Below, one piece after another: positions 5,540 through 64,000 of a DNA stretch of 64,000 nt. The stretch covers positions 277,140,001 to 277,204,000 of the forward strand of contig OZ024740.1 of the NCBI GenBank assembly GCA_964016885.1. Direction: 5' to 3'. This DNA is from Eledone cirrhosa. Lineage: Eukaryota. The notes beneath the pieces are model-generated. The model searched no databases and was not told the origin of the DNA. It saw only the letters and a program-made list of their open reading frames with translations. The position numbers and the translations under genes were made by a program. Position 1 is the first letter of the stretch; every line of letters starts with the position of its first letter.

Positions 5540-5573
<34 letters not shown>

Positions 5574-5641
5574 CATAATACATACATACATACATACATA
5601 CATACATACATACATACATACATACATACATACATACATAC
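5255..5641 (+). repeat. (TACA)n microsatellite tracts
   Basis: Direct reading; interrupted by a unique segment at about 5360-5485. Confidence 0.95.
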
Positions 5642-5968
5642 AGGAGAAGGAGGACATCTACGGACCATTGATGAGGAGTTTACAAATCCAGTATCCAAGA
5701 TACACCTTTAGCTTCATACCCATCATTATTGGTGCTACGGGTTATATACCAACCCGCTTGGACCAAAGTATGACTGAACTTGGATTTGCGGACAAAGAGC
5801 GCAGCTCCCTAATTCATAGTCTACAAATGGCTGCGATAGCTGGCACCTTCAAAATTTTCAAAACATTCTTGCGATTCAAGGGATGACAATTTCTTTTCTT
5901 TTACAACCTTGCCACCAGGAAGGTGGTCGGTCAAAAAAATATACTCGAAATTAAGAGAAAGAGATAAT
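5641..5968 (+). mobile_element. R4/Dong-like restriction-like-endonuclease (RLE) retrotransposon, 5'-truncated C-terminus plus 3'UTR, inside (TACA)n
   Basis: EKEDIYGPL...FIPIIIGATGYIP...LQMAAIAGTFKIFKTFL aligns with EKLSKYKDL...TIPVVVGALGMI...IQKIVLMGTAHILRKIL of the Dong ORF at 35092-35610. Stop at 5884-5886. TACA repeats on both sides. Confidence 0.75.
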
Positions 5969-13730: not shown

Positions 13731-13922
13731 ATCATGTCTCGAGCTACCTGCCGGCGAAACAATTGTAACACGCAATAAACTGAGTCCAGGTGCATCACTA
13801 ATTTTTCGTTTTTTTATACTATTCACACTCTGCTCTGTATGAATATTGAGTGCTAATTTTGGCATACCGCCTATGGATGCACCATAGCTACAATTATACA
13901 CAAGTATATATATATATATATA

Positions 13923-16175: not shown

Positions 16176-16210
<35 letters not shown>

Positions 16211-16421
16211 TGTGTGTTTGTGTGTGTGTATATGTGTGTGTGTGTGTACATGCATGTATGTGTTTGTTATATCTTATATGATAGGCTGGTCTATCTGTCC
16301 GCTTGTGTGTGTGTGTGTGTGAGAGAGAGTGTGTGTTTGTGTGTGTGTATATGTGTGTGTGTGTGTACATGCGTGTATGTGTTTGCTATATCTTATATGA
16401 TAGGCTGGTCTATCTGTCCGC

Positions 16422-16452
<31 letters not shown>

Positions 16453-16544
16453 TGTGTGTTTGTGTGTGTGTATATGTGTGTGTGTGTGTACATGCGTGTA
16501 TGTGTTTGCTATATCTTATATGATAGGCTGGTCTATCTGTCCGC

Positions 16545-16581
<37 letters not shown>

Positions 16582-16640
16582 TGTGTGTTTGTGTGTGTGT
16601 ATATGTGTGTGTGTGTGTACATGCGTGTATGTGTTTGCAT
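16136..16640 (+). repeat. ~123-bp minisatellite, 4 copies, embedding (GT)n and (GA)n
   Basis: tatatcttatatgataggctggtctatctgtccgc recurs four times with 119-127 bp spacing. Confidence 0.9.
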
Positions 16641-18099: not shown

Positions 18100-18142
<43 letters not shown>

Positions 18143-18341
18143 TTGTGTGCCTGTGTCTGAGTGCCTGTGTGTGCCTGTGTTTGTATATATATGTCTGTCT
18201 GTGTGTGCGTGTGTGTGTCTGTGTTTCTGTGTATGTGTGTGTGTGTGTTTGTGTTTGTGTGTGTGTGTGTTTGTGTGTCTGTGTTTGAGTGCCTGTGTGT
18301 GCCTGTGTCTGTGTCTGTGTCTGTATGTATGTGTAAGTCTA

Positions 18342-18385
<44 letters not shown>

Positions 18386-18540
18386 TGTGTTTCTGTGTAT
18401 GTGTGTGTGTGTGTTTGTGTTTGTGTGTGTGTGTTTGAGTGCGTGTGCGTGCCTGTGTTTGTATATGTATATATATATATATGTCTGTATGTTTGTGTCT
18501 GTATATATGTGTAAGCCTATTTGTGTGTGTGTGTGTGTGT

Positions 18541-18615
<75 letters not shown>

Positions 18616-18877
18616 TGTGTGTGTGTGTGTGGGCGTGTGTGTGTGTATGTGTGTGTGCGTGTCTGTCTGGGTGTGTGTGTCTGTGTGTGTGTGTGTGTGT
18701 GTGTGTCTGTGTGTGTGTGTCTGTGTGTGTCTGTGTGTGTCTGTGTGTGTGTGTGTGTGTGTTGTACTGCGACTTGTGTCTGTATATATGTGTAAGCCTA
18801 TTTGTGTGTGTGTGTGTGTGCGCGCGCGCGCGCGCGCGTGTGTGTGTGTCTGTGTGTCTCTGTGTGTGTGTGTGTGT

Positions 18878-18908
<31 letters not shown>

Positions 18909-19050
18909 GGCGTGTGTGTGTGTATGTGTGTCTGCGTGTCTGTCTGTGTGTGTGTGTCTGTGTGTGTGTGTGTGTGTGTGTGTCTGTGTGTGTGTGTCTG
19001 TGTGTGTCTGTGTGTGTCTGTGTGTGTGTGTGTGTGTGTGTGTTGTACTG
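16640..19050 (+). repeat. 2.4-kb degenerate (GT)n tract with higher-order sub-repeats
   Basis: Recurrent gagtgcctgtgt and gtttgtatatgtatgtgtct; gttgtactgcgact duplicated at ~18761 and ~19042. Confidence 0.95.
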
Positions 19051-19660: not shown

Positions 19661-19844
19661 TTGAATGAATTTACCGGAAAGAAAATAACATGGACGGTTT
19701 TCTTTGGAACAGTTGTAGAAATTAATTTTGCCTTGAAGGAAATAGATAAAATTCCTTGAGGTAACGGTTGTAGCTGTTGTTGGTGGTGTTGTAGTGGTGT
19801 TGTTGGTGGTACTTTAGTTGATGTGTGTCATGGTGTTGGTGATG

Positions 19845-22770: not shown

Positions 22771-22789
22771 TGATGTGTGTGATTGTGTG

Positions 22790-31529: not shown

Positions 31530-34500
31530 TTATAATTTTTACTTTTTTCATTATTGTTTCTGAGATATATGCCGAGTGTCTTCCCGACACCTAGGGCAAA
31601 TAAATTCACAGTGTGCATTGGTAAGCCAGTTAATACAGCACATTGATTATAATTTAAAAAAAAACAGTATACATATATACACATGTGCATATGCATATGT
31701 AAATACAAGGAGGGATGTCAATCTTACAGAGATAGTGCTCTTCTCAATACGTGTGCAGTACCAGTCAAAACAATTTTTTACACCTCGTGCAGAGAGGGTA
31801 AACCAGGAATCATTCGCAAATATTGTTCTGTTCCTTTCTTGATCGTTCCCAGTCCTCCCACAATCACTGGTATTGTAACGGCCTTGAGGTGCAACATTTT
31901 CTCAATTTCAATAAGCAGATATTTATATTTTCGTAGCTTGTCAAATTCTTTTGCCGCGATATTGTGATCACATGGGATGCTCATATCTATCAATAAACAG
32001 ACCTTGTTATGTTGATCTTTTATAATAATGTCAGGTATATTTGCTTTTATGGTCCTGTTAGTATGTACAGGAAAGTCTCAGAGAATTGTTACTTTTTCTC
32101 CTTCAGTTACAGCCTCAGGGTGATGATTGTACCACTTGTCTTCAGCATTGATTTTGTAATGCCGACATATTACCCAGTGTAGATATTGGCCAACTCTGTC
32201 ATGTCTATATTTGTATTCTACTGGTGCTAAAACTTTACATCAAGAGACTAAGTGATCCACTGTTTCAACACCAGCATTGCAGAATCGGCACTTTGGGTTT
32301 ATTCCATTTCTCATTACATTGGCCTGGTAATTACGAGTCAATAAGCTTTGTTCTTGGGCAGCTAACATGAAGCCTTCACTCTCCGCCTTTAGCCCTAACT
32401 ACGTAGCCACTGATGGGTGAGCTTTTGGTCAACATCAGCTTGTTTGCTACGGGCCACATATTTGCCAGGTTTCTGCTCCCAATTTGATGCTAATTGTCCT
32501 TGCCCTTTTGCTTTTGCCAGATTGTATGTGCCTAGCAGCATCAGTTGCAACAGTTTCTTTAGTCTCTCCAGCCTGGGTATCAAGCATGAGATCAGTAGCA
32601 TATTTGTTGCTCTTCTTCAAGATAGAATGAAGCTTCTTACTTCTCTCATGCTTTTCAACAAGCTTCAGCATACAGTCGTTAGTTGGTTCAAGGCATTTGG
32701 CCAGTCCAATGATGGTGGTCTTGTAAGCAAGTTCAAATTGGAGCAGGCCACGACCTACTTGAGTTCTAGGAAGGTAAAGACGATCCACATCTGCTTTTGG
32801 GTGGTACATCCTATTACAGCTTACGGACGTTGGTGTCGATTCTTTTGATTTCACTCATATTCCAGTTCAACGCACCGAAGCTATAAATGACAACTGGGAC
32901 TGCCAAGGAATTTATAGCTAGCACCTTGTTACGAGCGTTTAGTTCTGATCTCAAAACTGCACGTACTCTCCTGTAAAATTCTTTCCTTATCGTCTCTTTC
33001 ATACTTGCATTCTGTATGCCAGAGCCCTCATTAATTCCTAAGTATTTATAGGTTTGTTCCTGCTCAAGTTCCTTTATGATTGTTTCAGCATCCAATTCAA
33101 CTGAGTCTGAGTTGACAAGCTTCCCCTTCTTAAAAGTGGATTTTGCACACTTGTCAAGTCCAAACTCCATCCTGATGTCATCGCTAAACGTTTTTACTGT
33201 CCGCAAAAGCCTTCCAGTCGTCATTATCTTTGCAATATAGCTTCAAATCATCCGTATAAAATAGGTGGCTTATTTTTTTGTTGTCAATTCTATAACCGTA
33301 CCCTGTTCTATTAAGCTCGGCTGTAAGGGGTATTAAAGCTATTCAGAAAAGCAAGGATGAAAGTGAGTCACCCTGGAATATACCACAGTTGATGTTTATA
33401 TTCCTAGAGCACAGTACCCCAGTGGAATGAGACAATTGGAGATTTGTGTTTCATAATGACATATTGTGTTTCAGGAAGTTTGAGATCACAGGTGAGATTT
33501 TGAAGATGTCCAGTGATTTCAGAATCCATGAGTGTGGTATGCTGTCAAAGGCTTTTTTATAATCGATCCATGCAGAACTGAGATTTCTGTGTTTATTATG
33601 ACAGTTCTCAAGGATAATACGATTAATCAAAGTTGATCTTTGCAACCATATGAACCTCGTCGGCACCCTTTTTGTTCAATGGGAAAAAGATTGTTCTCCT
33701 CCAAAAACACGTATGCTTTTTCCATAAGAATAGAGGTTAATAGTTTATAAGTGGTGGACAAGCAGGTTATGGGCCGATAGTTTTTTTGATCTTTGGTTTC
33801 GTTGTTCTTTGGTAGAAGGTAGGTAATGCCACTTGCTATCCAATCAGGTGTATTTTTGAATCTTTCATAATTCCTTTAAACAGCTTTACCAATATATTGT
33901 GAGAGCACGGGAGTGAGGAAAGTCAGAAATTTGGCACCCTGTCTCTACCAGGAGATTTCCATCTATGAGATTTATTGAGTGCTGTCCTTAAGTCTGCTAT
34001 AGAGATGTCTTCCCACGCCTGCTCTTCTAAATTTGTGTAGGATTTTTCCAGGCGACTAATCCAATCTACATTAGACATATGTCTTCTCATCACTCCAAAT
34101 CTTACTCCAGAAGTTTTCAACTTCTTCTATGGACGGGGAGTCTTCAATAATTATTTTTTTCTTCCCTACTTCTCTATAAAATGACTTGTCATTGGATGAG
34201 AACAACTTATTTTGCCTGTAGAAGTTGTTTCGCTTCTCTAATCTACGAATTATTTGGGCTTTTACTTGGACTTTTTGTTTCAGAGATTCTTTTGTTGAAA
34301 CTGTTGCTTCTCTAGAAGACAGTTCATATTTTCTCTTTAGCTTTCTTACCTTCCTGGATCTTATATCATTTCCAGCGGTTAACTCACTCAATAAAGATAT
34401 TTCTCCTCTCCTTACGTCAATATCCCTTTCGATTCTACTCCTCCAAATTGGTTTACCTCGAAGGTTCGACTTTTTTTCTTTTTTTGGTGGTAAACAACTT

Positions 34501-34785
34501 GCTTCAATTACTCTAGCAGATAAATGATTTCATTTAACTCAGTAAGATCAGGTTCTAGTTCTTCTATGATTTCTTTTGTCACAGAATTACCAGTAATGCA
34601 CTGGGTAATTGCTGGCCTTGTGCCTAAAGTAGAAACAATTATTTGTTTTTTTTTTATTTTGGATTGTATTTGGGAGTTTTTGAAATGGTTCTCTATCATT
34701 TATACTAGAATGTCTTACTACTGCAAGCTCAGTCAGTATTTTTTGCTTTAATTCCTTCATAGTCTTCAGCAGATGTATGGGTTTT
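31530..34785 (-). mobile_element. R4/Dong-clade RLE retrotransposon copy 1 (5'-truncated, many stops and frameshifts)
   Basis: KSPGRD, AWIDYKKAFDSIPHSW, GIFQGDSLS, FSDDIRMEFGLDKCA, YKYLG, IDMSIP..KLRKY, ends GTAHVLRRALSL* at 31724; ATT repeats at the 3' end (~31522-31533). Confidence 0.9.
34588..34643 (+). mobile_element. SINE family A 3' fragment inserted in Dong copy 1
   Basis: taccagtaatgcactgggtaattgctggccttgtgcctaaagtagaaacaattatt. Confidence 0.8.
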
Positions 34786-34796
34786 TTTATTATCAT

Positions 34797-34946
34797 TGTT
34801 TTTTTTTTTTGTTTTTTTATTACATCCTCTGTTTTTGTTTTTTTACACGCAGAAATGTCCATTTGTACTGTCCTGTATTGTCCTTAATGTCTACTTTATG
34901 TAAACCTTTGTGGTTAATAAAGAAAGTATTATTATTATTATTATTA
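34797..34946 (+). mobile_element. L1/Tx1-like 3'UTR remnant with (ATT)n tail
   Basis: tttacacgca and ttgtggttaataaagaaa+(att)n match 51294-51448 (tttacacgca and ttgtggccaataaagaaa+(att)n). Confidence 0.65.
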
Positions 34947-37900
34947 CAGCTGCATTTATCTTGCTTTATGCTCATACGAGATATCACTAAGTCACAACCA
35001 GTGACCTCAAGAGACAACAAGGTCCGCCATGTTCAAGAAAGAACATACATACTCACACATGCATCTTTAGGTGTTTAGACTTGTGATGTACTTATATTGA
35101 CAGAATCTTCCTTAGTATATGGGCAGTTCCCATTAGTACTATCTTTTGTATTTCTCCTATACGCGGGTTTCCTGAGATTTGCGATAAGTAATCATTAAAC
35201 CCCTTAGCTATCATTCCTAGAGCGCCTACAACCACTGGTATTGTTTTAGTTCTCAATTTCCACATTTTTCCAATTTCTATCACAAGGTCCTTATATTTGC
35301 TCAATTTTTCAAATGTTTTTATAGATACATTCTTGTCTATTGGAACGGACATATCAATTAGCAGGCATACCCTCTTTTTAAAGTCCTTCAATATTATATC
35401 AGGTCTATTTGCATCTATTTTTCGGTCTGTTTGGATCATAAAGTTCCACAAGATTGAGGTGTGATCTTTCTCAAGTATGGGAGGTGGTTGATGTTCCCAC
35501 CAATTCTTTTGATGGGGCAGGTCAAAATGCTTACACATTATCCAATGTATGTATTGTGCAGCTCTGTCATGCCTGTTTAGGTATTCGGTTGGAGCTATAG
35601 GACTGCACATTGAAAGTATATGGTCAATGGTCTCTGGTTATTTTTTATATACACGGCATAATGGGCTGCATCCATTTTTTATTATGTTGGCTTTGTAATT
35701 TTTTGTTGGCAGACACTGATCTTGTACTGATATAATCAGTCCTTCAGTCTCCGATTTCAGTCCAGAGGATGCCAACCACTGATGGGTTAAAGTTTTGTCC
35801 ACATCAGGACTGTTAGCTCGTTCTGGGTATTTTCCATACACAGGCTTTTCTTGCCATTTCTTAGCCAGTTTCTGTAGCAGTTCTTTCTTTGCAGTTACTT
35901 TTACCTGCTTTGCTTTTTCTGTGTTTTCCATTTCAGCAGTAAATGGGACTTCTGAAATGTGTAGTCCATTACTGTATCTTTGTGCATCTTTTGTAATGGG
36001 GTATGATCTTTTGATGCTTTCGTATTTCAAAACGAGTTTGATCATCCAATCATGTGATTCCCTTAGATATGTAGATAATCTAATTGTTGCAGTTTTCAAC
36101 GCAATGTCTAACTGGATTAACCCACGTCCTCCTTCTTTCCTAGGGAGATATATTCTATCTATATCTGCCTTAGGGTGATGCATTCTGTGCATGGTTAAGA
36201 ATTTTCGAATTTTTGTATCGAGCCTACGGATCTCTGTGCTTGACCAGTTGATGACATTGTAACTGTAGGTTACTACTGGTATGGCAAGCGTGTTTATGGC
36301 ATCGATCCTATTCCTTGCATTCAATTCCGTTCTTAAGATTGCTCTTACTCTGCGGTAACATTCCTTCCTTATCCTTTCCCTCATTGTCGAGTGCTTGATT
36401 CCGTCTCCTTCACAAACACCTAGATATTTGTAAGTTTCCTCTTGATCAAGTTCTCTTATCACATTCCCCCGATCAAGATTAATGTCTGAACTTTTCAGCA
36501 GCTTTCCTCTGGTGAACGTTGCTTTGGCGCATTTATCTAGTCCAAACTCCATTTTAATGTCATCACTAAACTGCTCCACAGTGGATAATAGCCCTTGCAA
36601 TTGTTCATCATTTATTCCAAATAGTTTCAGGTCAACCATGTAGAACAAGTGATTAATGGTTTTGTCACAGACTTTATATCCATGTTTTGTTTCATTGAGC
36701 ACTTTAATTAATGGTATAAGTGCGATGCAGAATAAAAGCGGTGATAAAGAGTCACCCTGAAACATTCCACAATTAATATTAACTTCTCCAGCTTCCAGTG
36801 ATTTTGTTTCACTATTCAAAAGGAGTGTCGTTTTCTATGTCTTCATACTGAATGACAAAAACCTCCTGACAACGGGAGATATTTTGAAAATCTCTAAACA
36901 TTTTTCAATGCAACTGTGTGGCAAACTATCGAATGCTTTTTTATAACCTATCCAAGCAATTGATAGATTTTTGTGTCTATTATGACAATCTTCCAGTATC
37001 ATTTTGTTAACCAAAAGCTGATCCTTACAGCCATATGAGCCTCGTTTACACGCTTTCTGCTCAATGGGAAATAGGTCATTTGTTATCAGGTGGTCATATG
37101 TATATTCAGTTAGGACTGATGTTAAAATTTTATACATTGTGGTCAAGCAAGTTATCGGTCTCTAATTTTGGGGATTGTTTGTCTCATCATTCTTTGGAAG
37201 CAGGTATGCCGTTAACTAGCCATGATGGTATCTTTTCTGGCTCCTTAACTATTTCATTGTAAAGTTGGGCTAACAGCTCATGAGACTCTGTGAAGGCATT
37301 TATCCAAAAATTTTGTATTTTGTCTTTTCCTGGTCATTTCCATTTGCTGGTTTTTCTTAGAGCCAAACGCAACTGTTCAACTGTTATATTTCCCATATTT
37401 GTTCCTCAAGATGAGCTGTATCTTTCATTTGTCTGTCTATCCATGGGGCATGTATATTATGAACTTTTTTTTCGGCCCAGATCTTTTCCCAGAATTCTTG
37501 CACTTCCTCCTTGTGGTGGTATTGATTTAGAAGTTATTGTTGACTTTCCAATTTTTCAGTAGAAGATTCTTTGGTTGTTTTTGAACATATTATTGTCCTT
37601 ATAGAATCTAGATCGTTTTTCAAAGCGCCTTATACGAGCAGCTTTGGCCGACACTTTTTGCTTGATTATTTCTATCAGCATGTCTATGTCACTTGTTGAT
37701 TTTATACTGTACTCTCTTTTCAATTTTCTAAGTTTAGTTTGTTTAACATGTTCACCTACTTTATAGTTTGTTAAAATTTCTATGTCAGATCGTAGAAGGT
37801 TTATTTGGCGATTGATGTTCTCTTGCCAAGTAGATTTCTTGTGGGAATTCCTTTGTTTTTTCATCTTCACTACACATAAGTGAGTGGTGACTTTAGCCGA

Positions 37901-38900
37901 TGCATAATAGAGATGATTTAAATCAGTAATGTTTAGTTTGTTTGTGATGATAATGTTTTTGAGAATTATGTTAGTTTTGTGTATTATCTTTTGGTTCTGT
38001 TTGGAGTTCTGGATCTTAGGGAGGGTGTCTCGTTCCCCCATGTCAGATTCTTTCATTTTCATCCATTCGATCATAATTTCATCCTTCAAGTTGGCAAGTT
38101 CATTCTCATTCATTTCTTTATCATTTACGATCTCATTGTTTTCATTTGGAGTTTCATCTTGAGCATGCACTCCATCCACTTTTTCGATCCTTTCTTTAAT
38201 TTGATCTGTTGTCAGTGATTCCGCCCCAACCCTGGGATTCGAAGTGTTACAATTTACCTCGTTTTCACTGACACATGTTTCATTTTCCCTTCGCTGACTT
38301 TGTGCTAATATCTTGATCTGATCAATTTCTATATCAGTTAGTAACTTTTTTCTTACAATATTTCTTCGTATATTGGCTAGTTTGTTACTGTCAATATAGC
38401 CTCTGTTTTCGGGATGTTTCTTTTTCCAGTTGATATATGTCTGTTCTGTATTCGATGTATTTGATGGGTAGTACATGGCAGTGTAGAAAGCCTCAAGGAC
38501 TTCTTTATTATCTTCCCTTGACCATTTTTCTCTCTTTTTCTTTGGATTTCTTGGTGGTGAGCATGGAGGGCCAACAGTAGGAGTATTCCGGTTATGGGAG
38601 GTCTCCTGCTCCGAAGTGATGGGAAGGTTTGAACCATTAGCTGATTTTTCGACCCCAGTCTGGTTCCTCTCTGAGGGACGCGGCCCTTTTTGACCCGGGT
38701 GACGGCCGATCCGGTATGAGATTTTATCATTAGACATTTACTTTATTTTGTCGCGTTTTATCCTTATCCGCCAAGGGGTAATGATTTCGTGTTACCACTT
38801 CTAGGACGAGTGTCAACCAAGACTAGAGGGGTCGTTCTCCCCTAGAGACACGGCTACTCCCCGCCGGCCGCCTTCCCGGTATTTCTTGGTCACGGGGTTT
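34947..38900 (-). mobile_element. R4/Dong-clade RLE retrotransposon copy 2, apparently full length but disabled
   Basis: 5'UTR, ATG at 38737, Myb-like N-terminus (KWSREDNKEV..W..KHPE), RT (QGDSLSPLLF; YMDD reads YMVD), CCHC region, RLE (RPDII..IDMSVP..K.SKY), 3'UTR ending in (TAA)n. Confidence 0.95.
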
Positions 38901-39814: not shown

Positions 39815-42311
39815 AAATCAAAAACTTACGGGAGCGATTTCATGACCTTCTATCCACCACGTGCCTCTTCTTCCCTTATTCTTATTCTTCTTAAAGGGTT
39901 CCCAAAAGAAACCCCACCAAATATGGAGGTCGAACCACCCCACCTTCACAAGACCCGGGAGGTAAGTAGACCTTCCCTCTCTCTCTCTTAGCTTACCAAT
40001 ATTAAGAGTAGGAAGTTTAAATGTTAGCGGCCTGGGGTCACCCTGGAAGCAGGGTCGCCTGCTCAACGACCTCCGGTCGCTGGAAATGGATGTGATTGCC
40101 GTAAGCGAGACCAGAATTTCCGACACGGGCGCACTAGCCCCCATTTTCGACGACTATCAGATCTTCGCATCTGTTAGCAGGCCGGGAATGGGGGGGGGGG
40201 GCAGTGCTGTTTAGGAAAGGACTGGATCTCGAGGTAAGGTCGATCTTCCAGGACTCGGACGGTAAGTTGGTGGTTTTGGATGTGAGCAGTAGCGAAGGTG
40301 GTGCCTTTAGACTGCTGGCCGTCTACACCCCTACAGGGGCCGGACGACCTGACTTCTTTAGGCGCCTGGAGACCTTTCTGGGTACGTCTCGCCCTTTACT
40401 GTTAGCGGGGGACTGGAATGGCATCTTAGACGCACGCTGGGATTGTGTGGGAGTAGCCGATAGGAGCGGGGGATGCAAAAGCCTCAAGCACCTACTCAGC
40501 CAGTTCCAACTGTCTGACAGGTATCGACTAGATTTCCCCAATGTGCCAGTATGGACATGGACCAACCGAATGGGGTCATCTAGATCGTATATAGACAGGA
40601 TCTTCATTAGGAAAATAGATAGAAATAGTGTGGCCTGTCCACTTTTTAAAACGGTCGCCTATTCAGATCACAAATTTGTGATCTGTACGGTCGACCTAAA
40701 TAAAACGCGTAGGTTAGGAGCGGGTAACTGGAAGCTGAACATGTCATTTCCGGCACGTAAGGCTTACAGGGACCGAGTCAACAATTTAGTTAAACAAAAG
40801 TTGACAGGGGGGATCATCAACAACAGATGGTGGGGGTCTCTCAAAAGAGAGATTAGAGTAACTTCGATAGAGTTCAGCAAAGAACTAGCGTTAGAGAAAA
40901 ATAGAAAGGAAGGGGAGCTGGTAGATAAGTTAGACGAGGCTATTTGTAGTGGCATCGCAACTGACGTGCTAGCGGCGAGAATGGCATTAGACCATTTCTT
41001 CAATGCCAAACACGACAGTTGCATTGTCAGAGCTAAGGCGCGTGCGCTGAGAAACGAAGGAACTAAAGCTGTTCGATGGGCCCGCGTGGCGGAGGCGCAG
41101 CGTGGTAATAAAACCACAATTAGGTCGTTGGCGGACCGAGACGGAGACGAGATAAGTGATTCCAAGCGGATGTGTGAGGCCTTTCGCCAGCACTTTGCTC
41201 GGTTGTTCAGAGAGAGTGGCGAGTCAGAGAGAGTAGCGGATTTCAGTCCCTACCTTGACGGCTTGCCGCGCATCTCGACGGTCGACGCTGAGCGCTGCGA
41301 AAGGCCGATTACTTCAGCCGAAATTCAGGACGCCCTTGTCGGCTGCATGAGGCGCAAGTCACCCGGTTTGGATGGCCTGCCCTACGAGCTTTACGTAAAT
41401 ATGCCAGACTTGTTCTCCGAACTCCTCGAAGCACTCTGCTGCAACTGGCAGCAGAATGGGAGTATTCCCAGTTCTGTGAGCAGGGGAGTGGTGACGCTGA
41501 TAAGGAAAGACGAGAACAAGAGGGATACATTAGACAACTTCACGCCCATAACTCTGCTCAACACAGAGTTTAAGATTTTGGCCAAGGTGTTAGCAAAGAG
41601 ATTGGCGCTTGTCGTCGAGGATTTGGTTGGGGAGGCGCAAACTTGCGCAATCCCAACCAGGTCCATACACGACAATCTCCACCTCATGCGATACATCATA
41701 GAGAGGGTAGGGTGTAAACCTGACTTCGGTGGGGCACTGATCAATTTAGATCAATCGAAAGCATTCGATAGGGTCGACCATCGGTATCTGGAGTTTGTCC
41801 TCAAAGCAGCTGGCTTCGGCCCTGTCTTTAGAAGCTGGATCGTTGCAATGCACAGCGACACATTCTCGCTGGTCAAGGTTAATGGCCACCTCTCGGAACC
41901 GTTTCGGCTCTCCCGATCGGTCCGTCAAGGGTGCCCCTCTCATCCCTTCTGTACGTATTGACTCTCGAGCCTTTACTGCGGAAGCTGGAGCTGTTGCAGA
42001 GCATCCCGCTCGAACCGGGACGTGGAAAGGCGGTGTCGGCTTATGCGAACGACATCACCGTGATGGTGTCGAACACCTCAGAAATCGACACCTTATTGAA
42101 GGAATATGAAAGGTTGACAGGAGCCAAACTTAACCCGGAAAAGTCGGTGGGCTTGCAGCTCAGAACCTGGAGAGGCAAGCCCATGCCGTCCAACAGCGTC
42201 GTGGGGCGCTGGACGGACGGACCGGTAAAGTTGCTCGGGGTTGGGTTCGGAACAGACCTCCAGGTGGAAAAGAATTGGGACGAGGTAACGAGCAGAGTAG
42301 CCAGTCTCACC
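39815..42311 (+). mobile_element. L1/Tx1-like unit A: ORF1 tail plus ORF2 (APE-RT), 3'-truncated
   Basis: GSLNVSGL, SETR, GDWN, IDRIF, SDH, KSPGLDGLP, DQSKAFDRVDH, SVRQGCP, YAND; frameshifts at the G-run near 40190 and near 41940. Confidence 0.9.
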
Positions 42312-45300
42312 GCGTCTGTCCTCGTCGGAATCGAGGACAAAACAACTGTACTGCAAGTACAGAAAAAAGTAAGAGAAGATTGGGTCGGCACCTCCATTGA
42401 GATGTTAATCCAAACCAACCAGGAGTGCATCGAAGCTATCCCGGATGTGATAGACTTCGATAACGTCACTCAACTGCCCATAAGTGATGAGGGCAAACGC
42501 CCGAAATGCTTTCGCTGTGGATCGAAGACTCACCTCAGGGCCTTCAGCAACGAGAAGACCCTGAGAAAGGAGAAAACCCCCCTCCTTCCGAAACCGGCTC
42601 CACGGCTACCAGCAACAGGACAAGCGTCAACCAGGAACGATAGGTCCGTGGCACCCATACACACGCCACGGAAATCAAAAACAGCAGCAGCAGTGGAAGT
42701 ATTAACAACAACAACAACAGCAATACCAAATGCAGCTGCAACAGAGACTCCAGTGCAAACATCACCAACAACAAGTGAAAGAGTGGAGCTGGTACCCCTC
42801 CTCGACCTCACAGAATCAGACATGGAGTGTGAGGTGGGAGAGGGATGGCAAAAGGTCGTAAGAAGGCACAAACGCAGAAGCAGCGGATCGTCGCCTTTGA
42901 AAAGGGAGGAAAGAAATGAAAAAAGGGTAAAGTGTACTGGAAAGAGACTCACAGCAGCAACACCACCAACACCATCACCACCCACACTAGCACCACCATC
43001 ACCACCGGCGACAACCCCACCGCCAACAACAACAACACCTTCAACACCACCACAACAAGCACCAACATCGCAAACACAACAACAAAACACACACACCCAA
43101 CAAAAACGACAAGAAAATAGCAGAACCACACCCCTCCCCCAGAAAAACAAATGCACGGCAATAAATACACACAACAAGAAACTAATGACTTACATAATCG
43201 AACACACAGACATTTCACAACACGACTACATAATACCAGCACCAATCAAAACGCCAACTAACATAAGACTGCTAAAAATAGCACAGAAACAATACACAAA
43301 CATTAAAACGAAATTCCCCAACGCAGTTGGTGATTTCAGAGACCTAGGAGGAACTATCAACCGAAGAGTATATTCGGACATACTCATAGAAGAGCCGATG
43401 ACCAGCCGAAGGGACGATTCAACGGTCCCTTCACCAGACGATCAAGTGAAAAGGGATGTAAAAACCATCCCTCCTCTACGAAAAGTACGGTAAGGGGTCT
43501 TTCCCATCTTTTCCACTCTATTTTAAACATGACCTCACTCAGAATAGGCAGCATAAATGCGCGTGGCTTGGGGTCGTCATGGAAGCAGGGTCACCTGCTC
43601 AACGACCTCAGGTCACTAAACATAGATGTAGTGGCCATCAGCGAGACCAGAATCTCCGAAGCACGGGCCTTCGCACCGATCTTCGGCGGCTACGATGTGT
43701 ACGCATCTCCCTGCCGTCCTGTATCGGGGGGAGGAGTTGCTGTGCTTTTTCCGAGAGGTTTGGATCTCGCCATACGGGCCATCTTCCTGGACCCAGAGGG
43801 TAAGTTGGTGGTGCTGGACGTGACCAGCGGAGACTGGCAAGCTTTCAGGCTAGTGGCCGTCTATGCCCCGACAGGAGCAGGGCGGCCTGATTTCTTCCGG
43901 CGTCTGGAGACCTTTCTTGGAACGTCCCGCTCTTTAGTGTTAATGGGCGACTGGAACGGGATCTTAGATGCACGCTGGGACTGTGTAGGATTAGCGGATA
44001 GGGGTGGAGGGTATAAGAGCCTCACCAACCTGCTCAGGCGTTTTGAACTGTCTGACAGGTACCGATTGGATTTCCCGAATGTGCCAATGTGGACTTGGAC
44101 AAATCGCATAGGGTCATCCAGATCATATCTAGATAGAGTATTTTGTAGGGAAATAGATAGGTCTAGCATAGGCTGTCCACAATTCAAGATAGTCAGCTAC
44201 ACGGACCACAAATTCGTGATCTGTGTGCTTGACTTAGATAGGCTTCATAGACGAGGACCCGGCTACTGGAAGCTAAACGCGTCCTTACCAGCGCGCAAGG
44301 CCTACAGAGACCGGATTAGCGAACTAGTTAAGCGGGCGTTGACGCGGGCCATCGTCAACAACAAGTGGTGATTTGCTCTGAAAAGAGCGATTAGAATAGA
44401 ATCGATTAGGTTTAGTAAGGCTTTAGCAATAGAGAAAAATAGAGCAGAGGGAGAACTAGTTAGAAAATTAGACGAGGCGCTTAGCAAAGGCATTGCGACG
44501 TGCTTGCGGCGAAATTGGCCCTTGACCAATTCTTCAATGCAAAGCACGGAGGCTGCGTTGTCAGAGCAAGGGTGCGTGCTCTCAGACACGAGGGGACGAA
44601 AGCCGTTCAATGGGCCCGAGTGGCGGAGGCGCGTCGTGGCAACAAAGCCACGATCCGGTCTTTGGTGGACCACGACGGGCGCATGCTACTCGATCCCGGG
44701 CAAATGTGTGAAGCTTTTCAGCGACACTTCGCTCAGCTGTTCGGGGGCAGCGGTGGGCCAGGTCGAGGGATAGACTTTAGTGTCTACCTTGACGGACTGC
44801 CGCGGCTCTCGGCCACTGAGGCGAAGTGTTGCGAAAAGCCGATAACAGCCGCTGAAGTAAGGGAGGCAATGACTGGCTGCACAAGGGGTAAATCGCCTGG
44901 TTTGGATGGTCTGCCCTATGAACTTTACGTACAGATGCCAGACTTGTTCGGAGGCCTCTTGGCGGACGTCTACTGCAACTGGCAACATAACGGGAGAATT
45001 CCCAGTTCTGTGAGCCGAGGAGCGGTGGCACTGCTGAGAAAGTATCCGAACAAGGGGGATAACATAGATAATTTCCGGCCCATAACTCTGCTAAACACAG
45101 AGTTCAAGATTTTGGCCAATGTGCTAGCAAAGAGGTTGGCGCTTGTCGTTGGTGGCCTGGTGGGAGAGGCGCAGACATGTGCCATTCCCGACAGATCCAT
45201 CCACGACAACCTCCACCTCATGCGATACATTGTAGAGAGGGTAACTAGGGAACCTGGCACGGGTGGGTCCTTGATCAATTTAGATCAGTCGAAAGCTTTC

Positions 45301-46526
45301 GATAGGGTCGACCATCGTTACCTAGTGGCAGTCCTGAGGGCGGCTGGCTTTGGGCCCGTCTTCAGAGGCTGGATCGCTGCCATGCACAGCGACATCTGCT
45401 CTGTGGTGAGAGTGAACGGTCACCTGTCGGAACCGTTCAACATCATGCGCTCGGTCCGCCAAGGATGTCCCCTTTCGTCCCTCTTGTACGTATTGACTCT
45501 CGAGCCATTACTGCACAAACTGTAGACGTTGAGGGGCATCCCGCGCGAACTAGGATGCGGAAGATCCGTGTCAGCATATGCGGACGATGTCCCCGCAGTG
45601 GTGTCGAACGCCAAACACATCGAGGCGATCGGCACTACACTAAGAGAATACGAAGCGGTGACAGGAGCAATGATCAACCAGGAAAAGTCAGTGGGCCTGC
45701 AGCTCGGCACCTGGAGAGGCAGGTTCATGTCGTCCAACAGCGTCGTCGGACGCTGGACGGACGGACCGGTTAAATTCCTAGGGGTCTGGTTCGGTCCGGA
45801 CCTCCAGACGGACAAAAACTGGGACGAGGTGACGAGCAGGGTGGCTTCTCTCACCCAGAAATGGGCGGAGAGGAAGCTATCCCTGAAAGGTCGAGCGGAG
45901 GTGGCTAACGCGTACATCGCGTCTGTCATCTGCTACCGCCTGACCGTCGTACCTTTTCCTAAGCCTCGCCTGACTGCGCTGGAGCGTTTGCTCTTTCGCT
46001 TTTTGTGGAAGGGACGCGCTCCGATGGTCAGGCGGTCCATCTGTTGTCAACACCCGCTACATGGAGGGCTGGGTATGCCGTGGCTGATGATGCGCAGGCA
46101 CGCGCTTAGGCTACGACATCTCCACCTCTTCCTCGACGGTGATCAGGTGTGGTCGCCGTTTGTTAGACACGTATTTTCCCAGCTCGTTTCCTTGACGGAG
46201 CTGCAGTCCTGGGTCAAGCGAAGACCGAGAGGGAGCGCCTGGAGACTGGAATGTCTTCAGGCGCTCACAGCCCTCAACCAATCAGGCAATGTGATCGGTG
46301 GAAACTCCACCTCGGCGTTCTATAGAGGATTAGTGGGGGGGGGGGGAGAGCGACGACGTACTTGGGGAAACTCTAAGCGTCGACGAAAATCAACTAGCCA
46401 ATCTCTTCGGAAGAACTTTCGGGCCAGGGCCTATGGACAACTTCCAGAAATCTCTGGCCTGGCTGTGCTACCGAGGAGCCTTGCCAGTTCGGGATAAACT
46501 CTACAGGCATGGAGGTGCCGTCAGCC
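42312..46526 (+). mobile_element. L1/Tx1-like unit B: partial ORF1 (to 43493) plus ORF2 (from 43529), 3'-truncated
   Basis: ORF1 zinc knuckle CFRCGSKTH; ORF2 APE and RT motifs with YADD; stops at 44371 and 45525. Confidence 0.92.
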
Positions 46527-49500
46527 TTAGGGTCTGTATGGCAGCGGAAAACGCATATCACTCGAGGCAAGAAATATGCCACCGTGGGCATGCTTTTTGC
46601 CACAACCCAGGAGGCAAAGGCTCAATCCTTAGTGACCCTAAGGAGCGAGGAAAGGGTGTTGGTGCCCTCCTACTGCGGGCAAAAAATAGTGAGGGTCAAA
46701 CTGACCCAAGTCCCCCCCCCCCTCCTCGGGATGGCCCCTTATTGACTGGCCGCATCTGTCCTCGTTGGAATCGAGGACAAAACAACCGTACTGCAAGTAC
46801 AGAAAAAAGTACGAGAAGATTAGGTCGGCACCTCCATTGAGATGTTAATTCAAACCAACCAGGAGTGGATCGAAGCTATCCCGGATGTGATAGACTTTGA
46901 TAACGGCACTCAACTTCCCATAGAGTTGAGGGCAAACGCCCGAAATGCTTTTGCTGTGGGTCGAAGACTCACCTCAGGGCCTTCTGCAATGAGAAGACCC
47001 TGAGAAAGGAGAAAACCCCCTCCTTCCGAAACCGGCTCCACTGCTACCAACAACAGAACAGGCGGCAAGCAGGAAGGATTGGTCCGTGGCACCCACGCCA
47101 CGGAAATCAAGAACAGCAGCAGCAGTGGAAGTATTAACAACAACAACAGCAGCAGCAGTGGAAGTATTAACAACAACATTAATACCAACTGCAGCTGCAA
47201 CAGAGACTCCACTGCAACCATCACCAACAAGAACAAGTGAAAGAGTGGACCTCACAGAATCGGACATGGAGTGTGAGGTGGGAGAGGGATCGCAAAAGAT
47301 CGCACAAACGCAGAAGCAGCGCATCGTCGCCTTCGAAAATGGAAGGAAGAAATGAAAAAAGGTTAAAGGCTACTGCAAATAGACTTACAGCAGCAACACC
47401 ACCAACACCATCACCACCCACACTAGCACTACCATCACCTTCAACACCACCACCACAAGCACCAACATCGCAAACACAACAACAAAACATACACACCCAA
47501 CAACAACGACAAGAAAATAGCAGAACCACACCCCGCCGCCTGCAAAAGAAATGCACAGCAATAAATACACACAACAAGAAACTTACACAATTGAATACAC
47601 AGACATTTCAGAGCACGACTACATAATACCAGCACCAATCAAAACACCAACGAACATAAGACTGGTAAGAATAGCACTGAAACAATACACAAACATTTAA
47701 ACGAAATTCCCCAACGCAATTGGTGATTTCAGAGACCTAGGAGGGACACTCAACCGGAGAGTATATTCGGATATACTCACAGAAGAGCGAACGACCAGCC
47801 GAAGGGACGATTCAACGGTCCCTTCACCAGACAATCAAGGTAAGTGATCCTTTCTCACTTGCCCCGTTCGCACCCAACATGGCCGTACTCAGAATGGGCA
47901 GTATAAATGCACGTGGCCTGGGGTCATCTTGGAAGCAGGGTCACCTGCTCAACGACCTCAGGTCACTAAACATAGATGTGGTGGCCATCAGTGAGACCAG
48001 AATCTCCGAAGCACAAGCCTTCGCACCGATCTTTGGCGTCTACGATGTATACGCATCTCCCAGCCGTCCAGGATCGGAGGAGAGGGGTTGTCATCCTTTT
48101 TCGGAGAGGCTTGGAACTCGCCATACGGGCCATCTTCCTAGACCCAGAAGGTAAGTCGGTGGTACTGGACGGTGGTACTGGACGGCTAATAGCCGTCTAC
48201 GCCTCAACAGGGGCAGGACGGCCAGATTTCTTCAGACGTCTAGAGACCTTTCTTGGAACGTCCCGCTCCTTAGTGTTAGTGGGCGACTGGAACGGTATCT
48301 TGGATGCACGCTGTGTGGGGCTAGTGGATAGGGAAGGAGGGTGCAAGAGCCTCACCAACCTGCTCAGTCGTTTTGAACTGTCTGACAGGTATCGACTGGA
48401 TCACCCGAATGTGCCAATGTGGACATGGACAAACCGCATCGGGTCATCCAGATCGTATCTCGATAGGGTATTCTGCAGAGAACTAGATAAGGCTAGTATA
48501 AGTTGTCCACAATTTAAAATAGTCGACTACACAGACCACAAATTTGTGATATGTGAGATCGACATAGACAGACTTCATAGACAAGGGTCCGGTTACTGGA
48601 AGCTGAACGCGTCTTTCCAGGCGCACAAAGCCTTCAGAGACCGGATTAGCGTATTCGTTAAGCGGGCGTTGACGGGAGCGGTCGTCAACAACAGGTGGTG
48701 GTTCGCCCTGAAAAGGGCAATTAAAGTAGAGTCGATTAAGTTTAGCAAAGGAGTAGTGATAGAGGAAAATAGAGTAGAGGGAGAGCTAGTCAGAAAGCTA
48801 GAAGAGGCGTTTAGGACAGGCATCGCAACCGACGTGCTTGCGGCGAGATTGGCACTCGACCAATTCTTCAACGCAAAACACGAAGGCTGCGTTGTCAGAG
48901 CTAAATCCCGTGCTCTGAATCACGAGGGGACAAAAGCCGCCCAATGGGCCCGGGTGGCAGAGGCGCGACGTGGAAACAAAGCCACAATTCGGCCTTTGTC
49001 TGACCAAAACGGGTGCATGATGCTCGAACCCGAGCGGATGTGTGAACCTTTTCAGCAGCACTTTGCTGAACTGTTCGGGAGCAGCGGCGGCCCGGATCGG
49101 GGCATGAACTTCAGTGCATACCTCGACAGACTCCCTCGGCTCTCGACGACCGCATCACAGTGTTGCAAAAAACGATGGCTAACTGCACGAGGGGTAAATC
49201 GCCAGGTTTGGATGGTCTGCCCTACGAGCATTATTCATTTAAGCCAGACTTCTTCGGTGACCTCTTGGCAGACGTCTACTGCAACTGGCAGCAGAACGGG
49301 AGCATTCCTAGTTTTGTGAGCCGGGATTGGTGGCGCTGCTGAGAAAAGACGCGAACAAGGGGGATGTTATCGAACATTTCAGGCCCATAACCCTGCTAAA
49401 CGCAGAGTTCAAGATTTTGGCCAACGTGTTAGCAACGAGGTTGACGCTTGTCGTCAAGGGTCTGGTGGGTCCAAAGCATTCGATAGGGTCGACCATCGGT

Positions 49501-51388
49501 ACCTGGCGGCGGTCCGTTTTCAGGAGTTGGATCGCAGCGATATACAGCGACATCTGCTCTGTTGTGTGGGTGAACGGTCACCTGTCGCAGCCGTTCAGCA
49601 TCATGCGCTCAGTCCGCCAGGGTTGTCCCCTCTCGTCCCTCTTGTACGTATTGGCTCTCCAGCCGTTACCGCACAAACTGTGGGCGATGAGGAGCGTCCC
49701 ACGCAAACTAGGATGCGGGAAATCCGAGTTGGCTTACGTCGACGACGTCACCGTGGTGGTGTCGAGCACCAGACACCTCCAGATGCTCGGCACCGATCTC
49801 AAGGAATACGAAGCGGTGACAGGAGCAAAATAAACCAGGCAAAGTCGGTGGGCTTGCAGCTCGGCACCTGGAGAGGCAAGTCCATGCCGTCTGACAGCGT
49901 CCTGGGGCGTTGGACGGACGGACCGGTTAAATTTCTCGGGGTCTGGTTCGGACCGGACCTCCAGATGGAGAAAAACTGGAACGAGGTGACGAACAGGGTG
50001 GCCTCCCTCACCCAGAAATGGGCCGAGAGGAAGCTGTCCCTGAAAGGCCGGGCGGGGGTGGTGAATGCGTACATCGCATCCGTCATCTGCTACCGCCTCA
50101 CCGTCGTCCCTTGCTCCAGCCCAACTCTCACCAAAATGGAGCGCCTCCTCTTCCGCTTTTTGTGGAGGGGACGCGCTCCCATGGTCAGACGATCCATCTA
50201 CTGTCAACACCCGTTACGTGGAGGACTGGGCATGCCATGGCTGATGATGCGCAAACATGCGCTGAGGCTGCGACATCTCTGGTGCTTCCTTGATGGTGAA
50301 CAGGTGTGGTCGCCGTTCGCCAGGCACGTTTTCTCACAGCTCGTCTCCTTGACGGAGCTGCAGTACTGGGTCAGAAAAAGACCGAGGGATAGCGCTTGAA
50401 ACTGGAATGTCTCCAGGCGCTCACTGCCCTCTGCCAGCTGGGCACCAGTATCGGTGGAACATCCACCTCGGCGTTCTATAGAGGACTAGTGGAGGGGAAG
50501 AGCGACGACATTCTCGGAGAGATCCTGGGAGTCGAAGAAGATCAGCTGTTTGCTCTCTTCCGGAGAACTTTCAGACCAGGGCCTATGGATAACTTCCAAA
50601 AATCCCTGGCCTGGCAGTGCTACCGGGAGCCCTGCCTGTTCGCGATAAGCTCTACAGGCACGGAAGTGCCGTCAGCCGAGCCTGTCCGAGATGCGCGCAG
50701 AACGACGAAACCGTCGTGCACGCACTCGTTCAGTGCCCGAGCATTGCTGACTTGTGGAGCTATGTCGAACAGTTGCTGTCGCGTGTAGGACTGATCCGGT
50801 TAACGACTGAGTCCATTGTGCAGATGGTCTCGCCGTCTTCCTTCGAGGAGGAAGGGCAGGCGGTTTTCATCTGCCTGGTGGCCATGGCGAAAGAGATTGT
50901 GTGGTGGACAAGGTTAAAAGGGTTAAAGACAGACGAATCCCTAATTAACTTTTTCAAGTTTCACTTGAAGAGGAAAATTAGGGTGGGGAGGCAAGTGCTG
51001 TCTTCTAGCAAGTTTGTTGAAAGGTGGGTGAATGTAGCGAGAATGGTCCGAGTGAACGTGACCGCTCTGAATATACGCCTGTAGTTTGAGAGATGGAAAA
51101 ATTGAGAGATGGCGCTTGCCCTGGCGGTCTGGGTGGCCGTGGTCTTTTGTGTGGTTTTCGCTACGAGTAACCCTCGGAGGTTTCCCCCCTATTGGGGAAT
51201 TTTTCATTGTTTCAATTTTCATTTTTATTGTTTATATATATGTATATTTTTCTATGTCTTTTTTTTTCTTTTCTTATATAAATAATAAAAATATTTACAC
51301 GCACAAAACACACATCGTACCGCCCTGTACCGTCATGTGCCGTCTGTAATGTTTTTCTTGATGTCAGCCCTTGTGGCCAATAAAGAAA

Positions 51389-60774: not shown

Positions 60775-61865
60775 CAATTTTAGTACAGCATTAACGAAGC
60801 TTTAGGCTGCGGCTAAGCTAACGAATGCAGATTCGGAATGTAGCTTTAGCACTCGATGGAGAATAATAGCCCAGAGTTATAACAATACGTTTAGACAGCT
60901 TTGCAAATCAAATATAGCGACCGGCAGTCCAGTCGCATTGCCATAGCATCGAAAATGACTGAACTCAGGGAAAGATTTTGACTGACCTGGACCATCACGC
61001 GGAGATCGAATGCAACACATAACGCATATCGTATAGCATACGATATACATCACATATAACATACAACATCCATGCTAGGTTTCTGTAAATATATATATAG
61101 ATATATTCTAATGACTCCTGTTATCTTAACTTATTAAAAACATTTTAAAAATCAAATTTAAGCTAACAACAAATATGTTAATAGAGTTGTTAAGTGGTGC
61201 CTTCTAAGTATGCTTAGTTAATAGTGATTTTTTTGCCCTTGGATTTATGCCAAAATAACTACTCAGTGTACATATGTTAACATTTTGGTCCCATAATGAT
61301 TGAACTAAATAGAAACCTGTGTGTTGATACAAAACGTAAATACGGAAGGTTTTCCACTCATGAATGACAGTTCAATGGCAATCTAAATTAGAAAATACAG
61401 TAAATTCTGCTTAATGTTGTTATCTTCTTTGATTGATTATCGAATATTATAATAGATTGCCACAATGAATTGTCTTACACATGTGCATACAACAATACAT
61501 AATTAATTTATATGGAATCGGTGGCCGATTAATCGCTATCGCACAATAAGCCAGGACTGATTAATCGGTAATCGGTCAATTTTCATATCAGCTCATTTCT
61601 AATTCACACATCCACATACATTCACATATACATGCATATAGACATACAAATATAGATATATACATACATGCACATGTACATACATACATACATACATACA
61701 TACATACATACATACATACATACATACATACATACATACATACATACATACATACATACATACACACATATATATATATATACATATATACATATATACA
61801 TACATACATACATACATACACATACACACATACAATAACATCCATACCTACACATGAATCTATGC

Positions 61866-62392
61866 ATGCATACATACATATCTACCTAGTTGATGTGTAA
61901 ATTCCAATGAGAGATTCTTGTAACTATGTTAGAAACCGACTCTCTCTCTATTGGCAAAAATTTGTGAAACTATAAAACCAGAAAATACATACATACATAC
62001 ATACATACATACATACATACATACATACATACATACATACATACATACATACATACATACATACAAATCTTGAGTGGCGGGGCTTCATAGAAATAGAAAA
62101 AACACGACTCGTTAGGAAATTAGTTAGGAACAGTAAAAATATGTAAAACAGTCTAAAAGTTTTGCATCTAATAACTGCATATACACTTATACAGATACAA
62201 AGCATATACACATGCATACATATAACTCAACACAAAATCCACATATACATTAACATCTATACCTGCAAACACATGCATACATATCTACCTAGTTGATGTT
62301 GTGTAAATTCCAATGAGAGAGTCTTGTAACTATGTTAGAAACCGACTCTCTCTCTATTGGCAAAAATTTGTGAAACTATAAAACCAGAAGAA
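61866..62392 (+). repeat. ~120-bp direct repeat (61866-61986 and 62273-62392), each copy followed by (TACA)n
   Basis: tctacctagttgatgt..ccaatgagaga..gactctctctctattggcaaaaatttgtgaaactataaaaccagaa occurs twice. Confidence 0.9.
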
Positions 62393-62461
62393 CATACATA
62401 CATACATACATACATACATACATACATACATACATACATACATACATACATACATACATAC

Positions 62462-64000
62462 AATGGCGACCGTTGTGGTCAGTGTCCGATAATTGGACGT
62501 GTGTAATTACGGCTTACATGAAGGCAACATACCATATATTGGAAAAAGTTGAGCTACATTACGCGGTAAGATTACATACAATAATTCTACATAAGTGTTT
62601 GAACTGTAAGTGTGTTGTAAAACACCTATTTATATGAACGATACATACACTTATGATATATGAACGATACATACACTTTAACATATAAATGCAACGTTGT
62701 TATATTACATTTATAAAGAAATATAAAAGTAACGTTTTCGATTCAGAAACAAAAATATAAGTGTTTGAACTGTGAATGTTGTGAATATGTTGTAGAACAC
62801 CTATTTATATGAATGATACATAAACTTTAACATATAAATACAGCATTGTTATATTATATTACATTCGTAAAGGAATATACTAAGTAACGGTTCTTTTTGT
62901 TCTCGATTCAAACGATTCAAGAACAACGTTTAAAACACAGTTGTAGAATTAAAAACTAACTGAAAAGAAATATTACCCAAGCTGTGAATAACTTTAAATT
63001 TGATTCTGACAGAACTTTGTCGTAACTTTTAAAGAAGATCATCGACTATTTAAAAAAAATAAATACAAAATATTAGTGAATAGACGAACTCATCATGGCA
63101 AAAAGTACAAGTCTCCTTCGACCAAATCGCAATTACAACCGTTGTATACAGTGGAGCTACGAGCTTAACAAAGAATTATATGAAGCATACAAACAATCTG
63201 AACCCCAAAAGTTCGGTTTTATGCAAAGGCTAAAAACTTTATGGAACTCCAAACACCCAGAATTAGACTTTTCTCCAAAGCATCTAAATGAACAGGCAAA
63301 ACGTATCATTAGATGTAAATTGATATATCTAACGGAATCGAGTGATACTACAAATACAGCCCTTGTAGACAACCACCCCACCTCCACTGACAGACAAAGA
63401 GAATGGCCGGCTAAATCTAACAGTGAACAGCTCACCAACAATTTTGCTGAAATCCATCCCACTTCCACTGAAGAACAGCGAGAAAGGTCAGCTGACTCTA
63501 GTAGTAATTGTCACCACATCAACAACGAGGCTGCAATTCATGACTCTACTGAACAAACAGAGCACCAAAAACTTGTGGGCACCCTACAAGTGATATGGAA
63601 CGATATGTTTCAAGAGATACACAGCCTTAATGTGAGTGACAGACCATACAACACTAGAGTCAGTAAAGAACCCACTAAATTGGAATTGGAAGCGGTGAAC
63701 GAAATAGCTGGCAATTATCTGAAGGCTATACGATCTAAAGGTGTAGAAACGACATTTGAAACGCTCAATGTTTTGTTATATGTTTCAGCTGTCACATTGC
63801 TATCATATAACACACATCTAAAACCACGCAATCAAGATACAAACAGAAAGCCTGAACCAGCGTGGATGCGAAATTTAAAAACCAAAATTTTGTCCCTGAG
63901 ACGAAGTATCTCACACATCGCAGTCGTTATGAAATGCAACATAGAGAGAAACTTCACACGACACCAGGAAGACCTAAAGAAAAAGTTAGAGAGACGATTT
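62462..64000 (+). mobile_element. 5' part of a divergent R4/Dong-like retrotransposon starting right after (TACA)n
   Basis: ~630-bp putative 5'UTR with a ~166-bp internal duplication, then an open ORF homologous to the N-terminus of Dong copy 2. Confidence 0.75.
63095..64000 (+). CDS. R4/Dong-like ORF N-terminus (302 codons, no stop, runs off the window)
   Basis: Manual translation: QWSYELNKELYEAY..LWNSKHPE..LNEQAKRII and LNVLLYVSAVT..PAWMRNLKTKILSLRRSI align with KWSREDNKEVLEAF..WKKKHPE..LANIRRNI and LNHLYYASAKVT..TWQENINRQINLLRSDI of ORF 37556-38737. Confidence 0.85.
   Translation, partial: MAKSTSLLRPNRNYNRCIQWSYELNKELYEAYKQSEPQKFGFMQRLKTLWNSKHPELDFSPKHLNEQAKRIIRCKLIYLTESSDTTNTALVDNHPTSTDRQREWPAKSNSEQLTNNFAEIHPTSTEEQRERSADSSSNCHHINNEAAIHDSTEQTEHQKLVGTLQVIWNDMFQEIHSLNVSDRPYNTRVSKEPTKLELEAVNEIAGNYLKAIRSKGVETTFETLNVLLYVSAVTLLSYNTHLKPRNQDTNRKPEPAWMRNLKTKILSLRRSISHIAVVMKCNIERNFTRHQEDLKKKLERRF

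Follow-up and report, generated by a model that had tools for sequence, protein, structure and literature searches.

The R4 elements of nematodes insert into rDNA and generate a fixed target duplication of ~13 bp. The Dong elements, which belong to the R4 clade (Bombyx Dong, DongAg, the snail DongBg and the ostracod Dong1/2), target (TAA)n microsatellites; they code for a single ORF that combines a Myb/SANT-like domain at the N terminus with a reverse transcriptase (RT) and a restriction-like endonuclease (RLE), and have no N-terminal zinc fingers (PMC7998251, PMC3812793). Bombyx Dong additionally bears a 5' HDV-like ribozyme (PMC3774820). Other RLE families specific for microsatellites include Togen, with a (TG)n target, and HERO (PMC4640811). 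The Waldo elements WaldoAg1/Ag2 and WaldoFs1, members of the R1 clade with an APE endonuclease, target ACAY microsatellites (PMC3812793). In Octopus vulgaris, five recently active Dong-R4 families are reported with 1,129 insertions and 4.73 Mb (PMC13282606), i.e. ~4.2 kb per insertion when the one figure is divided by the other; the passages searched of that report, of PMC8967140 and of PMC9115989 give no target sequence for these families. The way in which site-specific retrotransposons acquire new targets has not been settled, and so far R2 is the only one known in structural detail.

Here we describe a family of R4/Dong-like elements, family A, with a tetranucleotide microsatellite target. 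Our main reading, to which we assign a probability of roughly 0.88, is that it inserts into pre-existing (TACA)n in one orientation, likely through its own protein binding and nicking the repeat, followed by target-primed reverse transcription. The element was detected at the right end of the window, i.e. the whole 64,000-nt stretch that was analyzed (G000:C1:277140001-277204000), and runs past the window end to span 4.22 kb in total (~4,223 nt, the final A of which is possibly target-derived). A preliminary description of the window had noted 302 open codons from the ATG at 63095 and unique sequence starting after about 18 TACA units. Both observations hold: the frame, with no stop or frameshift, extends to 1169 aa in all, and the tract of 17.8 units (62392-62462) is directly followed by unique sequence at 62463. 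This position is the 5' end common to the full-length copies of family A, so that the true 5' end does not lie well inside 62462-63090, a possibility that had been entertained. The RT, CCHC, RLE and 3' UTR followed by (TACA)n, which had been expected beyond 64000, are all present there. The element terminates with a short 3' UTR that ends in ...GAGAAAA and then passes into CATACATAC (in the stretch beyond the window, L031), the element ending in (ATAC)4 and the 3' flank being TACA repeat. The coordinates of the features are collected in Table 1.

Table 1. Features of the family A element, its target tract and related elements in the window (positions are those of the window unless another contig or locus is named)
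Feature	Position	Strand	Remarks
(TACA)n target tract, upstream of family A element	62392..62462	+	17.8 perfect units, 100% match
Family A 5' UTR, 632 nt	62463..63094	+	imperfect internal repeats; multiple upstream ATGs; nt 33-39 carry a GGACGTG motif
Single 1169-aa ORF, first 302 codons	63095..64000	+	continues to G000:C1:277206604 (L031:5105)
Family A element 3' end	near G000:C1:277206685 (L031:5186)		then (CATA)n
Three-helix N-terminal domain, ~aa 17-76	63143..63322	+	likely Myb/SANT-like, predicted DNA-binding module
Family A 5'-truncated copy	5638..5967	+	last 330 nt, 97.9% identical; TACA tracts 5489-5642 and 5969-6066
Family C 5'-truncated 3' end	61759..61986	+	older R4/Dong-like family, same target, between TACA tracts
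Family C second 5'-truncated 3' end	62061..62391	+	tract after it received family A
Decayed Dong-like copy, comparison	34947..38900	-	of a different lineage; (TAA)n end at 34946-34927; position of 5' end approximate

The translation of element A is a single intact ORF, open past the window end, with an RT domain (PF00078, aa 479-726, E 3e-24 in a Pfam search; FVDD at 660) succeeded by a CCHC motif (aa 980-997) and a PD-(D/E)xK endonuclease. This order within one ORF is the layout of RLE-type non-LTR elements. The endonuclease motifs, which we take from the translation to be RHD, PD, E and K-xxx-Y, are kept in 25 homologs. The protein has no match to the APE family, these C-terminal RLE motifs occurring instead; the translation contains no N-terminal C2H2 finger, and a Pfam search with the 302 aa inside the window gave no match. 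The R2 proteins are its best solved relatives both by sequence and by fold, the predicted structure (pLDDT 82.7) aligning with them at 17-20% identity. In this model residues ~17-76 form three helices. When this N-terminal domain was folded alone, its top matches were mostly Myb, SANT and trihelix domains with middling scores (best Z 5.8, rmsd 2.4, 62 residues aligned), and Foldseek and profile searches with it returned nothing significant. It aligns with the same motif in TAA-flanked elements. The structural model suggests that it is likely Myb-like, which agrees with the Myb/SANT-like domain reported for R4/Dong (PMC7998251). The closest named homolog is from Argonauta hians (62% identical over 64%), which points to an octopod as the likely host.

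The genome contains 4,516 exact 3' ends of family A (as 23-mers) and 316 exact 5' ends (as 24-mers), and 1,517 of the former share the junction form of the window copy. The copies are dispersed, with a fixed 3' end, variable 5' truncation and no LTRs. The stretch 5641-5968, earlier read as a 3' junction in (TACA)n in the same orientation, is indeed a truncated copy (Table 1) oriented as element A, preceded by (TACA)n and followed by degenerate (TACA)n. The whole 1169-aa frame is intact in 26 of the 40 best matches to the window ORF, and ungapped full-length copies show a median of 5 nt differences in 4.2 kb (range 0-19, 210 pairs); these 40 were selected by similarity and so demonstrate a very young subfamily, not its share. 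Copies sampled by position range from 87 to 100% identity. Element A is an intact copy of a very young family. Among public runs, no RNA run is listed as carrying family A, which has no bearing on expression.

Both junctions of the element lie in the repeat. Both junctions could be read in 86 copies, one of them a distant 66% match; the repeat extends for 8 nt or more downstream in 83 of these and for 16 nt or more upstream in 72. Sampling of 3' ends in genome order gave repeat downstream in 42/43 and upstream in 38/43, the five without upstream repeat being older copies, and all 30 of the 5' ends sampled in genome order are preceded by at least 13 nt of it. The pattern is sharpest in the 52 young copies that are at least 99% identical (28 full-length and 24 truncated; L036 was dropped for its locally duplicated 5' end): every one has at least 51 nt of TACA upstream. 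Truncated copies cannot bring 5' repeat from the RNA; therefore, the upstream repeat is the target. The phase of the 3' junction is fixed, +1 being C in 57/58 and +2 being A in 58/58. A pure 24-nt repeat precedes 31 of the 52 young copies and the reversed pure repeat none, against a genomic background of ~0.04% of strand-positions with 24 pure nt of repeat ahead of them. Genome-wide, 2,636 of the 4,516 3' ends display the strict junction pattern and 120 of the 316 5' ends the strict upstream pattern; these are lower bounds, as they miss junction variants seen in the samples that are mostly still within repeat. Contigs from three public runs (X1, X7 and X11, with three organism codes) likewise pass from the family A 3' end into CATA repeat. 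Thus, the repeat specificity of family A is statistically demonstrated, and the proposal in the preliminary description of a young, sequence-specific element with a tetranucleotide target is supported; other copies are not randomly inserted.

Family A shares this target with other elements. In most of the 30 family C loci viewed, TACA flanks the element on both sides; family C is ~51% identical to family A in the RT region, and no intact frame of it was found in 14 stretches, the longest open piece being 711 aa. Element B (~0.6 kb, L031:5205-5788) follows the 3' tract of element A just beyond the window end. As one of its ends is fixed and the other variable (in 90/96 copies), it is an opposite-strand retroposon; in the loci examined, 72-75 of its 96 copies have repeat at each side. 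It encodes a remnant of a C2H2 finger of a kind that occurs in RTE C-termini, and is likely an RTE-derived short element. Bipartite short elements derived from RTE are known (PMC5786205). After element B lie a 5'-truncated copy of family A (97.3%) and then a long decayed copy of family C (L031:5860-9901), a single TACA array chaining at least six elements from window position 61759 onward.

The two sides of the insertion are not equivalent. Fewer than 50 nt of repeat lie upstream in 0/52 young copies versus downstream in 23/52, when uniform cutting would predict 14.6 on either side. The bias is weaker in the position sample among copies at least 98% identical, where tracts under 45 nt are found upstream in 4/12 versus downstream in 6/12; later insertions may account for this. 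One 99.5% identical copy in that sample has 34 nt of repeat upstream, and hence the upstream minimum is either at most 34 nt or was shortened in that copy by later insertions. R2Bm binds and needs the upstream segment from -38 to -7, and alterations downstream are tolerated (PMC10499050); the most natural interpretation for family A would therefore be an upstream footprint of its protein. At the 5' junctions the phase is variable, and truncated copies show 0-5 matching bases there. Unlike the nematode R4, family A has a microsatellite target and shows no target duplication of 6-30 nt (0/7 to 0/22 of the informative full-length copies). Matches of imperfect units, as a duplication would leave, occur in 5/58 pairs relative to a shuffled mean of 3.0; 14% of the shuffles reach the count of 5, which is thus attributable to chance. 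The truncated copies L039 and L090 may have duplications of 24-28 nt.

By analogy with R2, we propose that the N-terminal Myb-like domain and the RT surface would hold ~35-50 bp of repeat upstream of the cut, and that the restriction-like endonuclease would nick the TGTA strand at a fixed phase, such that the element 3' end is succeeded by (A)CATA; a few downstream repeat bases would suffice for insertion. The RNA of the element would then be copied at the repeat by target-primed reverse transcription, and 0-5 nt, matching or added, would connect the 5' end to the upstream repeat. The 5' phase would consequently vary, 5' truncation would be frequent and no fixed target duplication would arise. 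As every insertion would keep repeat on both sides, families A and C and the opposite-strand RTE-like short element could accumulate in the same tracts.

The strongest alternative is that the element itself makes the repeat, with a CATA tail at its 3' end and synthesis by slippage or template jumping at its 5' end, at weakly chosen sites. The long upstream tracts of the youngest copies (at least 51 nt), which are purer than the downstream ones, would fit this, and synthesis during 5' joining could yield the same; further, microsatellite tails are common in RTE elements (PMC9115989). However, a degenerate tract style is common to both flanks, family C and element B use the same tracts, and in one copy, L070, the repeat following the 3' end is no more than 3-4 nt long, which speaks against a fixed tail. 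The shared style lies in the ATAT content of the left and right flanks, which is correlated (rho 0.60, p 0.0002; 32/52 copies testable) and argues that the tracts predate insertion; overall flank impurity is uncorrelated across the junction (rho 0.17, p 0.36). We therefore deem a repeat-making element improbable, though some lengthening of the tract may occur at the 5' junction of family A. Far less credible still is loosely AT-rich or random insertion followed by preferential survival in microsatellites, which has been proposed for Drosophila Waldo-A/B (PMC3812793). It might appeal to the richness of the genome in this repeat (584,550 in-phase 24-mers) and to the few older copies lacking upstream repeat (5/43), but is already largely refuted: near-identical copies all lie in repeat, in one orientation and with one 3' phase, at >1,000x the background, and a survival bias would fix neither strand nor phase. 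That a single locus was multiplied by segmental duplication or misassembly, without separate insertions, has next to no probability and is rejected, as the flanks beyond the tracts are unrelated; a few neighboring loci are tandem duplicates (L048/L049, L114/L115), but the copies are spread over many contigs with different flanks and 5' truncation points, and independent public runs carry family A.

Insertion of family A into a pre-existing repeat invites comparison with the systems introduced above. Like Dong, it has a single ORF with a likely Myb/SANT-like domain at the N terminus, RT and restriction-like endonuclease but no N-terminal zinc fingers, and is microsatellite-specific (PMC7998251, PMC3812793); unlike Dong, it targets (TACA)n rather than (TAA)n and falls in a clade separate from all four TAA-flanked sequences tested. 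As the target differs, it is not Dong in the strict sense. With R2 (R2Bm, R2Tg, R2Pm) it shares the best structural and sequence matches, the RT-CCHC-RLE order and upstream-biased recognition (PMC10499050), and it differs in lacking an N-terminal C2H2 finger, in its dispersed microsatellite target in place of 28S rDNA and in the low identity of the fold alignments noted above. From the sequence, family A is very likely a member of the R4 clade that works like Dong and R2, and its protein would be the agent that cuts TACA. The ACAY targets of the Waldo elements include the ACAT repeat used by family A (PMC3812793). In contrast to Waldo, family A has a C-terminal restriction-like endonuclease and no APE domain; the shared target would be convergent. 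Togen and HERO belong, by their descriptions, to other clades and use other repeats. The octopus "Dong-R4" repeats, known here through their descriptions, are recently active. In the literature, searched without Repbase, we found no R4 element targeting TACA/CATA, and a prior description is possible.

A metagenome scan recovered 34 relatives, and the ends of 17/34 were viewed (L168, L170, the distant L176, L178, L181-183 and L185-194 fall outside this flank survey). (CATA)n lies on either side of L165 and L166 (45-46%), which are both full-length. Flanks of (CTTA)n are seen on both sides of L164, at the 5' side of L161 and L162 (whose repeat is at this side only) and at the 3' side of L167 and L171; the last two are near-identical, and the CTTA-flanked relatives thus amount to four independent families. 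L173, L174, L177 and L184 (30-37%) adjoin TAA-type repeats, L173 being ~30% identical to family A in the region from RT to end. L163, L169 and L172 show no flanking repeat before their contigs end. The 3' flank of an R4-like element in L179 (L179:4076-4472; 35% to A) runs into the 3' end of an 18S rRNA gene (Rfam match 4350-4437), and this element is possibly rDNA-associated.

An IQ-TREE analysis of 35 of 113 rows and 431 columns, with three distant RTs as the outgroup and without the named Dong, R4, Rex6 and R2, places every CATA/CTTA-flanked element together with A and C in a single clade (99.7/100), the four TAA-flanked sequences falling outside it. Family A is joined there by the Argonauta protein and the CATA elements (98.2/99), and family C, weakly, by the CTTA elements (84.8/88). 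The A/C clade, in which the flanks of most other members fall outside the data viewed, is nested among TAA-flanked Dong-like elements with strong support. The clear motif-level homology to Dong copy 2 earlier claimed for the 302 aa shrinks to 35% over 40 aa (E 0.002; 37556-38737), a likeness limited to the N-terminal W..W..HPE motif. On these comparisons, element A is not a close relative of the TAA-ending Dong copy in the window and belongs to a separate lineage. The CATA/CTTA-flanked relatives likely mark a whole branch with a switched landing site. A more ambitious reading, on which we are evenly divided, is of a deep, undescribed R4/Dong branch that would have left TAA for C(A/T)TA repeats with at least one CATA/CTTA switch, would read 35-50 bp upstream through a single Myb-like domain, might possess an internal promoter instead of an HDV ribozyme and would be transposing now, offering a natural series of near-sister enzymes with targets that differ by one base.

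What is new in family A is its target and lineage, along with the CTTA-flanked sister elements and the upstream bias; its architecture was already known, as was the idea that microsatellites can be targeted, and the class of mechanism is not new. The family has a protein that is both intact and very young, a target that could hardly be simpler, and natural insertion sites by the thousand; the CTTA sisters together with the more distant TAA elements constitute a comparison series for assigning specificity to either the Myb-like domain or the endonuclease. The family further suggests that the recently active Dong-R4 elements of octopus-like genomes are in part directed into microsatellites, which they remodel.

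The untranslated regions offer some further leads. Neither Rfam nor our own descriptor matched an HDV-like ribozyme in element A, and the TAA-flanked controls were also blank. Rfam searches of element A and seven relatives detected no ribozyme; their matches were miRNA-like and repeat-driven, apart from an rRNA piece in L179, and the control region was blank. The predicted fold of the 5' UTR is unremarkable (z -1.45), and that of the 3' UTR has a z of -2.95. A GG(A/-)YGTG motif recurs 17-33 nt inside the 5' end of divergent members (window 62495-62501, L162, L164, L165, L166, L268), and may be an internal promoter element. A DPE-like reading of the motif was considered and stays a lead, as its distance from the 5' end ranges from 17 to 33 nt. 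In L143, L145, L152, L157 and L151, copies of family A skip from nt 262 to a point further along the 5' UTR; they are a subfamily with a shorter 5' UTR, arising by deletion between internal repeats.

Elsewhere, the minus strand of the window carries two decayed Dong-like copies of the TAA lineage (31800-38900), of which that at 35092-38737 ends in (TAA)n, and pieces of a Penelope-like element (12222-13931) with weak RT and GIY-YIG matches. Three L1/Tx1-like elements, broken and arranged in tandem, lie on the plus strand (40138-51084); their frames resemble those of an endonuclease and an RT. A 97-bp minisatellite of ~30 copies at 95% identity (19830-22780) adjoins a 2.9-kb (GT)-rich tract (16176-19043).
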